From the UHGV virus genome UHGV-0138564: DNA of 22,217 nucleotides; one strand, 5' to 3'. Positions 2,799 to 3,406 of the stretch are shown here, piece by piece. A model generated the notes under the pieces. The model saw nothing but the letters and a program-made list of their open reading frames with translations. It ran no database searches and was not told where the DNA came from. The translations under genes and the position numbers were made by a program. Positions within the stretch are counted from its first letter, which is position 1. Each line of letters opens with the position of its first letter. The DNA is from a virus.

Positions 2799-3406
2799 TT
2801 TGCTGCTCCTCATCATATCGACCCTGCAAGGTCGGTTGGTTTCTCCACAAAACAGAGAAGAACACCTGCGGTGACTGCCGCCCGGATGGATTGGGTTATG
2901 AGCCCGTCGTCCGGTGATGCTCTTCTCTGTTTTGTAAAAAGAGCGGTACCAGCCGGAAGCAAGTGTACAAACTGGTACCGCCAAAGCAGTGGCTGTTGTG
3001 GTGGGGTTGTCACTCAGGCGTATGGTCAACCTGACAATCCGGTGTCCTCAACGGGGAAATAGTAACCCCGCCATACTTACCGCCGCGCCATTTCGCGGAT
3101 TACCACAACGCTGAGAGCACTTAGCCAGTTACGGCACCACACTTTGTCGCGGCTCCATAAATGCCCTCATCGTTGCACCCTGGTCTCTTCCCAGGCGTCA
3201 AACCGAATCGCCACGCTGGTTAGGCGTCTTATCAGCATCATCATTGACTTGCACATTCCGGCTACCTGGTTTGTTTGCCCGAGCAAGGAGTGGATTGTCC
3301 CCTTTAACGTCCCCAGACCGCTAACGACGCATGTGCCATACGCCGTGTTACAACCAAATTTTGTTAGTACCTTGTTTGTTTGTCTGGAAAGAAAGATAAA
3401 ATGAAG

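Follow-up and report, generated by a model that had tools for sequence, protein, structure and literature searches.

The inverted repeat and its leader RNA

The viral genome UHGV-0138564 is represented here by a stretch of 22,217 nucleotides (hereafter the window, numbered along one strand from its first letter), which contains a lambdoid immunity region. The minus strand encodes a cI-like open reading frame (ORF) at 3501-4193, followed by its terminator at 3463-3480, and cro-like and cII-like ORFs are found to its right. The leftward operon begins with yfdP and continues with homologues of yfdQ, yfdR, yfdS, and yfdT. A first-pass annotation had described a gap of roughly 700 nt between the cI-like ORF and the first leftward gene, which is indeed the case, except that the ATG of this gene lies at 2798 rather than 2800. 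Located within the gap is an inverted repeat, which is the P1 helix of a conserved three-way-junction RNA derived from the minus-strand transcript. This RNA, referred to below as the element, is the subject of the current study.

The repeat itself is exactly as initially described: ACAAAACAGAGAAGA is found at 2847-2861 and its exact reverse complement at 2921-2935. The 59-nt spacer between the arms contains 64% G+C versus 48.5% for the whole window. No other perfect inverted repeat of at least 15 bases with a spacer of at most 100 nt occurs in the window, and the mean number among 200 shuffles is 0.01. Complementarity extends over 25 nt at 84%, and in the minus-strand RNA the arms grow to 20 pairs that include G-U wobbles, plus an additional 5 pairs that take in the preceding U-tract. 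When folded, the minus-strand transcript 3000-2795 has a predicted energy of -87.8 kcal/mol (z = -6.3). The parts of the element, together with the hairpin that follows it, are listed below in 5' to 3' order after the entry for the whole element.

2840-2942, minus strand: whole element as covered by the covariance model R1, comprising a three-way junction plus the flanking U-tract and GGAGAAA
2916-2935, minus strand: 5' strand of P1, ACAAAACAGAGAAGAGCAUC, which includes the right-hand repeat arm (2921-2935)
2882-2914, minus strand: P2, with a 7-bp stem CCGGACG/CAUCCGG, an internal loop AC/AAUC, a 3-bp stem GGG/CCC, and the loop CUCAUAA
2893-2906, minus strand: tip of P2, CGGGCUCAUAACCC, 14 contiguous nt identical to the anticodon arm of the E. 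coli initiator tRNA-fMet
2868-2881, minus strand: P3, a variable hairpin GCGG-CAGUCA-CCGC that has other sequences and insertions of up to about 25 nt in homologues
2847-2866, minus strand: 3' strand of P1, GGUGUUCUUCUCUGUUUUGU, which includes the left-hand repeat arm (2847-2861)
2840-2846, minus strand: conserved single-stranded GGAGAAA immediately 3' of P1
2819-2834, minus strand: P4, a hairpin CGACC-UUGCAG-GGUCG, replaced in homologues by a hairpin of differing sequence in the same place

A single A separates P1 from P2, P3 comes next, and another single A precedes the return strand of P1. After P1 come a conserved GGAGAAAC(C/U)AAC, P4, and then the yfdP ribosome-binding site. The element starts 1-2 nt past the U-tail of a small-RNA terminator, and about 45 nt separate its end from the first gene. 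A cmsearch of the window with R1 yields a single match of 118.8 bits (E = 6.5e-28), whereas the plus strand scores 39.4 bits. No second copy of the element, such as an analogue of putR, was found in the window, and there is none in the rightward operon.

Conservation and genomic contexts of the element

BLAST searches found a piece of sequence containing the element to be common to phages of E. coli, Shigella, and Salmonella (mEp460, cdtI, Stx2c phages, SfII/SfIV/SfV, and ST64B), and its core is also present in Klebsiella, Citrobacter, and Pantoea phages. A scan for the P2 core identified 120 loci in IMG/VR and 25 loci in a set with one genome per species, in addition to one evident chance match. 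These loci span at least 15 Enterobacterales genera and include about 90 distinct versions of the element. In the following, copies found in early-left operons are termed type A and Klebsiella-type late-operon copies are termed type B. As most loci were retrieved through the P2 core, the invariance of this core is partly built in. In a control retrieval, loci were selected by the flanking P1 and P2-stem bases and 25 core positions were left free. The canonical core was present in 120 of the 128 loci obtained in this manner, with GAC..GGCUCAU and CCAAUCCA varying in singletons only.

To assess the pairing, the structure was imposed by hand upon a MAFFT alignment of 46 type A sequences, from which R1 was built. 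Among these sequences, 94.8% of the cells in the paired columns can pair, compared to 45-58% when the partners are shifted by 1-3 columns, and 8 pairs change on both sides. A larger set of 73 sequences aligned with R1 gives a similar picture (93.4% versus 42-57% when shifted), and 17 of its 39 pairs show compensatory changes; the observed values were reached by 0 of 500 column shuffles. For P1 as modelled (25 pairs, consisting of the 20 core pairs and 5 from the U-tract), 11 pairs have changed on both sides among 72 distinct sequences, and in P3 compensatory changes affect 3 of the 4 pairs. The 5 pairs between the U-tract and GGAGA are solely U-A and U-G, making covariation uninformative for this portion of the helix. 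Stem variants of P2 convert CCGGA/UCCGG to CCGGG/CCCGG, CCAGG/CCUGG, CCUGA/UCAGG, or GUAUG/CAUGC, which includes both A-U to G-C and G-C to A-U replacements. The same conclusion can be reached independently of any alignment: P1 reads GGCCUG/CAGGCC in Klebsiella phages and CACAAUACCAAAGGCG/CGCCUUUCAUAUUGUG in the Pantoea locus, and both helices close the same P2. Salmonella and Enterobacter variants likewise have several P1 positions swapped and close the same P2. The possibility raised at the outset that the paired arms might not be conserved among related prophages is thus contradicted, as pairing is kept through compensatory changes.

With its covarying paired arms and marked strand asymmetry, the feature is an RNA-level element of the leftward leader, as the first-pass annotation had proposed in one of its two versions. 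Conserved G-U pairs are numerous and would become A-C mismatches on the opposite strand. Given these pairs and the strand scores of 118.8 versus 39.4 bits, the structure belongs to the leftward RNA and not to the DNA; the other version, a protein-binding site at the DNA level, is unlikely judging from the same sequence comparisons. Overall, the element is almost certainly a real and selected RNA structure, and the strong covariation support means that it merits proposal as a new RNA family. Rfam 15 contains no family that covers 2840-2942, either for the window at gathering score or for the leader at E values up to 10, where nothing other than noise was returned. Among 11 related loci and one type B copy, Rfam matches were limited to neighboring tRNAs, the Qin DicF, and isrJ, leaving the element uncovered.

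Two families of unknown function in PHROGs overlap the RNA element. A plus-strand ORF of 150 amino acids (aa) at 2610-3062 matches phrog_3651, and a minus-strand ORF of 66 aa at 2813-3013 matches phrog_33599. A coding explanation was considered and rejected: P3 varies from 15-19 nt in single-nucleotide steps among one group of homologues and measures 34-40 nt in others, and such changes would shift the reading frame on both strands. The ORFs are therefore taken as mis-calls, which suggests that both families are annotation artefacts over a conserved RNA. Elsewhere, the element is either unannotated or lies beneath spurious “hypothetical protein” calls.

When examining the genomic contexts of the element, a consistent position emerges. 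For type A, strict criteria recognize a terminator hairpin with a T-run that stops at P1 in 55 of the 70 unique upstream flanks. The next gene is YfdP-like in 98 of 133 loci (50-100% identity), and the other loci have a YfdR-like gene, an RdgC-like gene, xis/int, or a holin gene in this position. Type B copies are found between Q and the lysis genes as the final unit of a tRNA array. The tRNAs of these arrays are 5-6 nt apart, and in most loci 6 nt (GAUAAU) lie between P1 and the CCA of the preceding tRNA (for Arg, Asn, Thr, or Phe), creating a U(-1)/G(+1) junction. Type B P1 measures 6-7 bp and is followed by A/G-CCA in 13 of 13 variants, beyond which five unrelated continuations occur. An intrinsic terminator is located about 55 nt downstream and a holin gene about 130 nt further. 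For all late-operon copies, an intrinsic terminator is found about 55-115 nt downstream of the element, ahead of the lysis genes. The Pantoea copy combines features of both types, as it has a long P1 and an upstream terminator, yet it occupies a late-operon position. In every locus for which the downstream gene was identified, the element is encoded on the same strand as this gene. The variety of downstream genes and the slot within tRNA arrays indicate that the element is a portable, gene-independent module located just 3' of a stable RNA. A further arrangement is seen in the late region of one Klebsiella-type phage (locus L021, 3747-4308), where an isrJ-like small RNA (sRNA; Rfam), four tRNAs, and the element follow one another in order.

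The element is also abundant. Of 5,426 complete E. coli genomes, 2,488 contain it, some with as many as five copies, and the prophages that carry it are distributed among at least 15 enterobacterial genera and include Stx2-converting, cdt-converting, and Shigella serotype-converting phages. Literature searches, which did not cover King et al. 2011 (new put RNAs), returned no description of it. Consequently, the element appears to be an undescribed tRNA-like leader RNA family. It bears on early-left expression in lambdoid phages that lack N (those of the mEp460, ST64B, SfV, and LLS type), and its position is where a lysogen-expressed, virulence-linked small RNA of the sRNA-17/DicF-like group meets the early-left operon.

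The upstream small RNA and the surrounding leader

As first reported, the string CGCTCTTTTTAC is found just 5' of the upstream repeat arm on the leftward transcript, where it had been read as resembling boxA. This reading has to be abandoned, as the string consists of the 3' stem half and U-tract of an intrinsic terminator with its hairpin at 2943-2981. Only 45 of 134 homologous loci have the pentamer CGCTC before the T-run, and the others have CGTCC, CGCCC, CGCAC, CAGCC, GCACC, etc. Since these bases are the 3' halves of lineage-variable terminator stems, a conserved boxA is ruled out and the annotation of the supposed boxA can be corrected to that of a small-RNA terminator. The remaining features of the leader are the following:

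3110-3359, minus strand: published ArcA-bound promoter fragment of sRNA-17, placed by primer matches (PMC7719688)
2937-3110, minus strand: small RNA of about 174 nt, DicF/sRNA-17 family, with ends inferred by homology to sRNA-17 as mapped by rapid amplification of cDNA ends (RACE; PMC7719688)
2943-2981, minus strand: intrinsic terminator hairpin, GCGGUACCAG-19 nt-CUGGUACCGC, from folding and an inverted-repeat search; the sRNA-17 3'-end primer matches 2937-2968
2936-2942, minus strand: terminator U-tract UCUUUUU, predicted to pair with GGAGA (2842-2846) and thereby extend P1
2813-2848, minus strand: possible upstream ORF of 11 codons (GUG GAG AAA ... UGA), uncertain, with its start codon in the last P1 pairs
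2436-2798, minus strand: yfdP-like first leftward gene, 120 aa, phrog_204, with the Shine-Dalgarno sequence GAGGAG at 2806-2811

In E. coli K1 strain RS218, sRNA-17 is a 193-nt RNA that was mapped by RACE, and its 3' end was determined experimentally in a locus near-identical to that of the window (PMC7719688). The published sRNA-17 primers match the window exactly at 2937-2968, 2948-2986, 2984-3002, 3110-3132, and 3338-3359, and the RACE-derived 3'-end primer stops at 2937, 2 nt from P1. The middle portion of the small RNA differs from that of sRNA-17 and has a Qin-type module in its place: 3003-3101 is about 92% identical to the stretch directly upstream of dicF in Qin-type prophages, whereas the 5' start and the 3' hairpin are those of sRNA-17. 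With sRNA-17 ends and a Qin-type middle, the small RNA of the window is therefore a chimeric member of the DicF/sRNA-17-like group. Its terminator hairpin occupies the position of DicF, and both contain UUUGGCGGUA(C/U)CAGUUU. The likeness to DicF is positional, with the addition of the motif UUUGGCGGUACCAGUUU versus UUUGGCGGUAUCAGUUUU; the Rfam DicF model (RF00039) has no match in the window at gathering score or at E values up to 10, while the Qin control scores 72.5 bits. When the body of the small RNA was exchanged for a resistance cassette in the K1 study, yfdP RNA rose by about 95-fold (PMC7719688). This increase is compatible with read-through of the terminator plus element and does not separate the models considered below.

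Several additional observations can be made regarding this small RNA. The Qin counterpart of 3003-3110 (minus strand) holds the RNase III cut that yields a 190-nt DicF, and Qin-type prophages are present in most E. coli genomes. Within the Qin-like module, GGCGGUAAG (about 3075-3083, minus strand) resembles the ops element recognized by RfaH, GGCGGTAG, from which its last base differs. The sRNA-17 promoter fragment (3103-3346 in the window and 3001-3248 in locus L001) recurs at 83-87% identity elsewhere, with copies immediately 5' of a tRNA-Arg gene in the morphogenesis region of other prophages as well as in phages TL-2011b and PH444. The fragment may be a portable promoter cassette for small stable RNAs. 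Terminator hairpins upstream of type A elements (e.g. L026, L040, L120, and L132) have a common stem, GGCGG(U/C)(A/G)CCAG...CUGG(U/C)(A/G)CCGCC, and these same hairpins differ in their C/U-rich loops of 13-19 nt. From their sequences, the type A upstream hairpins look like a DicF-like sRNA family with diversified seed regions.

Further upstream, GTTGCGNNNTATGCAA occurs twice (3406-3421 and 3430-3445), 24 nt apart, just to the left of the cI terminator, and motifs resembling TTGCG...GCAA are found between cI and cro at about 4233-4280. These are likely OL and OR operators. The element lies about 470-560 nt from the operator-like repeats at 3406-3445 and is not positioned directly after the promoter. 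The absence of an N-type antiterminator from this region, as claimed initially, is borne out by comparison to PHROGs: the small ORFs of the leader match no N-type family, and two of them, of 92 and 86 aa, have no match whatsoever.

Possible functions of the element and comparison with known systems

Several inferences can be made regarding the tRNA-like character of the element. The 14-nt match to the initiator tRNA (the tRNA-fMet sequence used for this comparison is found at 100% identity in 5,426 of 5,426 E. coli genomes), the position within tRNA arrays, and the CCA of type B copies together lead us to describe it as tRNA-like. An acceptor-like stem, R-CCA, array spacing, and U(-1)/G(+1) are all present in the Klebsiella late-operon relatives. 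The window copy has a P1 of 20-25 bp followed by GGAGAAACCAAC and no CCA, and the element has no D arm, T loop, or cloverleaf. A proposal that it might be a degenerate tRNA gene was dropped, owing to its rejection by ARAGORN, the Rfam tRNA model, and sequence alignment; the likeness is therefore treated as a resemblance and nothing further.

Based upon its conserved features, the element could be an RNA processing/stability “punctuation” module situated between a stable RNA and the downstream mRNA. We favor this reading tentatively, with a probability of roughly 35%. According to such a model, P1 would form in read-through transcripts only, clamping the U-tail of the small RNA and thereby creating a defined endonuclease target. 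In the tRNA-array version, the enzyme would likely be RNase P, acting at the base of the short acceptor-like stem with its U(-1), G(+1), and R-CCA. In the window version, it would likely be RNase III acting upon the 20-25 bp P1. Cleavage would free the upstream stable RNA with a usable 3' end, and a very stable structure would then form the start of the downstream mRNA or protect it. The near-invariant P2, with its tip resembling the initiator anticodon arm, would presumably serve as a handle for some tRNA-recognizing factor. The length that RNase III demands (at least 20 near-perfect bp, about two turns) is reached by the P1 of the window, having 20 pairs, of which 15 are perfect, and a 5-pair extension; relatives with a P1 of 6-7 bp fall short of it. 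Maturation of DicF employs RNase III and RNase E (PMC10448788), and the helix formed by the DicF U-tract in Qin, counted as an analogy, supports the punctuation reading.

Several results weigh against this reading. ARAGORN reports no tRNA in the window, nor in type A and type B copies when run in its relaxed and mitochondrial modes. The Rfam tRNA model has no match on the type B copy at E values up to 10, and global alignment to phage and E. coli tRNAs gives z values of 2.8 or less, which are not significant. The window copy has no CCA and a P1 of 20-25 bp, such that recognition by RNase P is extrapolated from distant relatives, and the pairing of the U-tract with GGAGA is an energy prediction alone. 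In late operons, a terminator separates the element from the lysis genes, so the element is not directly at the 5' end of their mRNA. Lastly, a plain stabilizing hairpin would have no need of an invariant P2 core.

The best surviving alternative, though a doubtful one, is that the element is a put-like but non-homologous antitermination or anti-pausing RNA, which would bind its own polymerase, enable it to resist downstream terminators, and thus stand in for N. The phages in question belong to a class that lacks an N homologue, and the LLS paper speculates on a put-like mechanism for such phages (PMC12315714). Furthermore, the element is encoded in both of the lambdoid operons that require antitermination, early-left and late, every late-operon copy is followed by an intrinsic terminator before the lysis genes, and independence from the downstream gene is precisely what a transcription-level device predicts. 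However, the element shows no sequence or structure match to put and forms a closed junction rather than two open hairpins. It is also positioned past the sRNA terminator and would therefore be of no help to a polymerase passing this terminator, and no strong minus-strand terminator was seen in the 2.8 kb of the operon available downstream of it. In addition, the window contains a single copy with none in the rightward operon, a gene for the Q antiterminator is already present in phages with late-operon copies, insertions of about 25 nt are accommodated in P3, and P1 spans anywhere from 6 to 25 bp.

Control of first-gene translation is unlikely to be the function. In this scenario, P1 and its extension would bury both GGAGAAA and the start codon of the upstream ORF (GUG, 2848-2846); after opening or cleavage of P1, translation of this ORF would be coupled to initiation at the first gene. 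An in-frame AUG (2816-2814), located 18 nt before the yfdP start, shares bases with the stop codon of the upstream ORF. At the end of P1, most type A variants have GAG AAA preceded by GUG or AUG. Of 48 unique variants, 33 have the upstream-ORF stop between -5 and +21 nt relative to the main start, and three independent contexts show an AUGA overlap, namely yfdP of E. coli, yfdP of the Enterobacter type, and an rdgC-like gene. The Qin analogue, in which the DicF U-tract is paired with the dicB Shine-Dalgarno sequence, also points in this direction. Conversely, no Shine-Dalgarno sequence is found at a workable distance from the upstream-ORF start, one locus (L061) has ACG at the start position, and the encoded peptide sequence is not conserved. 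The ORF varies in length between 3 and 46 codons, its stop falls 33-76 nt short of the main start in about 10 variants, and chance alone would often place the end of such a short ORF close to the main start. Late-operon copies have neither GGAGAAA nor an upstream ORF and are followed by a terminator ahead of the next gene, and the invariant P2 core is left unexplained. A kissing interaction between the P2 loop and the yfdP start region was also considered; it showed a single apparent covariation between the window and ST64B, which was not used as evidence.

Phage tRNAs are known to counter defenses that target tRNAs, and it is conceivable, if decidedly unlikely, that the element is cut out of the leader and acts in trans as a stable RNA that mimics the initiator anticodon arm, thereby serving as a decoy or sponge for a VapC-type nuclease, another tRNA-directed defense, or the 30S P site. 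Besides the 14 contiguous nt shared with the tRNA-fMet anticodon arm, CUCAU is invariant even in the loci that were retrieved without the core, the Klebsiella-phage copies behave as tRNA gene units with respect to array spacing and an encoded CCA, and the element is located in highly expressed early and late leaders. The case is nevertheless purely circumstantial, as the mimicking stem has just 3 bp inside an irregular hairpin and the overall similarity to tRNA is not significant. A wider speculation, to which we likewise assign a low likelihood, is that Enterobacterales temperate phages carry an unrecognized class of tRNA-derived or tRNA-mimicking RNAs that would be excised from early-left or late-operon leaders and function either as trans decoys for factors that recognize or cleave tRNA-fMet (VapC-type toxins and anticodon nucleases) or as polymerase- or ribosome-binding substitutes for N in lambdoid phages without N. 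Finally, although a dimeric protein could in principle recognize the two perfectly palindromic 15-bp arms, a DNA-level site (protein-binding palindrome or cruciform) or a chance or decaying functionless repeat is highly improbable in light of the A-C mismatches that the conserved G-U pairs would create, the unequal strand scores, the complete change of arm sequences between lineages with pairing kept, the shared strand with the downstream gene wherever this gene was identified, and an expectation of 0.01 such repeats per window. Whichever function applies, the element provides a concrete object for studies of antitermination, RNA processing, or tRNA mimicry.

The initial suggestion of a nut-like or put-like site can be retained in part. 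The element is a structured leader RNA in an operon without N, but it is a member of neither family, having no boxB and no match to put. With lambda nut, it shares its location in the PL leader and, for the window copy, a string resembling boxA. Unlike nut, this string is an unconserved terminator tail in which the CGCUCUUA/GCUCUUUAACAA type of boxA is not kept, and there is no N gene. The fold contains no boxB hairpin (a short stem with a purine-rich pentaloop) 3' of the boxA-like string, which is directly followed by the 20-nt P1 strand. In HK022, put consists of two open stem-loops in a V shape, located immediately past PL or, on the PR side, at a distance of about 270 nt from the promoter, ahead of the terminators that they suppress (PMC9378689). 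Binding to the zinc-binding domain of beta-prime and read-through of terminators are further hallmarks of put RNA. The element is similar in being a structured leader RNA of about 70-100 nt that is found in a lambdoid phage without N and is independent of downstream genes. In contrast to put, it is a closed three-way junction with a long P1 that lies past a terminator and occurs as one copy instead of two; R1 has no match at E values up to 1 in HK022 22000-31500, which holds both putL and putR. The element is thus neither a lambda nut site nor an HK022 put site.

The leader-derived immunity RNAs of other phages, P4 CI RNA and P1/P7 C4 RNA, are processed by RNase P, and the element resembles them in being small, structured, and located in the leader of an early operon, and in possibly bearing a tRNA-like signal for processing. 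It differs in that the window contains no Rfam match to C4 or isrK and no target repeats of at least 9 nt. An antisense role like that of P4 CI was rejected, since P2 and P3 have no complementarity of at least 9 nt to the rest of the leftward transcript, with the exception of one probable chance match. Lambda PL transcripts also contain RNase III sites, namely the sib retroregulator and the N-leader hairpin. The parallels to these are a long duplex that is formed only in read-through transcripts or a long leader hairpin upstream of the ribosome-binding site of the first gene, as well as a P1 that, with at least 20 bp, is long enough for RNase III. However, there is no homology, the terminator hairpin of the element lies outside of P1, sib has no conserved branched interior, and RNase III cannot act on those relatives whose P1 has 6 bp.

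The dicF-dicB region of Qin presents an analogous layout. The order of its parts is the same, with a DicF-type sRNA, a terminator, a helix started by the U-tract around a branched domain, and then the first ORF. Upstream of the small RNA, Qin and the window share about 92% identity. The helix measures about 29 bp in a Qin-type prophage of E. coli BL21(DE3), where it runs from the DicF U-tract to the dicB Shine-Dalgarno sequence. Homology to this helix was rejected, as R1 has no match in the locus (L002): the helix and its interior are non-homologous and, unlike P1, the Qin 3' strand covers the dicB Shine-Dalgarno sequence, leaving a resemblance of layout only.

A last comparison concerns tRNA-like marks for RNA processing, which include the tRNA punctuation of polycistronic transcripts, the mascRNA of MALAT1, the RNase P cuts between clustered bacterial tRNAs, and the stable RNAs “species 1 and 2” from the tRNA cluster of T4. 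The element differs from these in not being a cloverleaf, in the long P1 and missing CCA of the window copy, and in that its cleavage is only predicted. What it shares with them is a compact fold with an acceptor-like closing stem located directly 3' of another stable RNA, to which the copies in Klebsiella phages add the array spacing, U(-1)/G(+1), and an encoded R-CCA, together with the look-alike of an anticodon arm.

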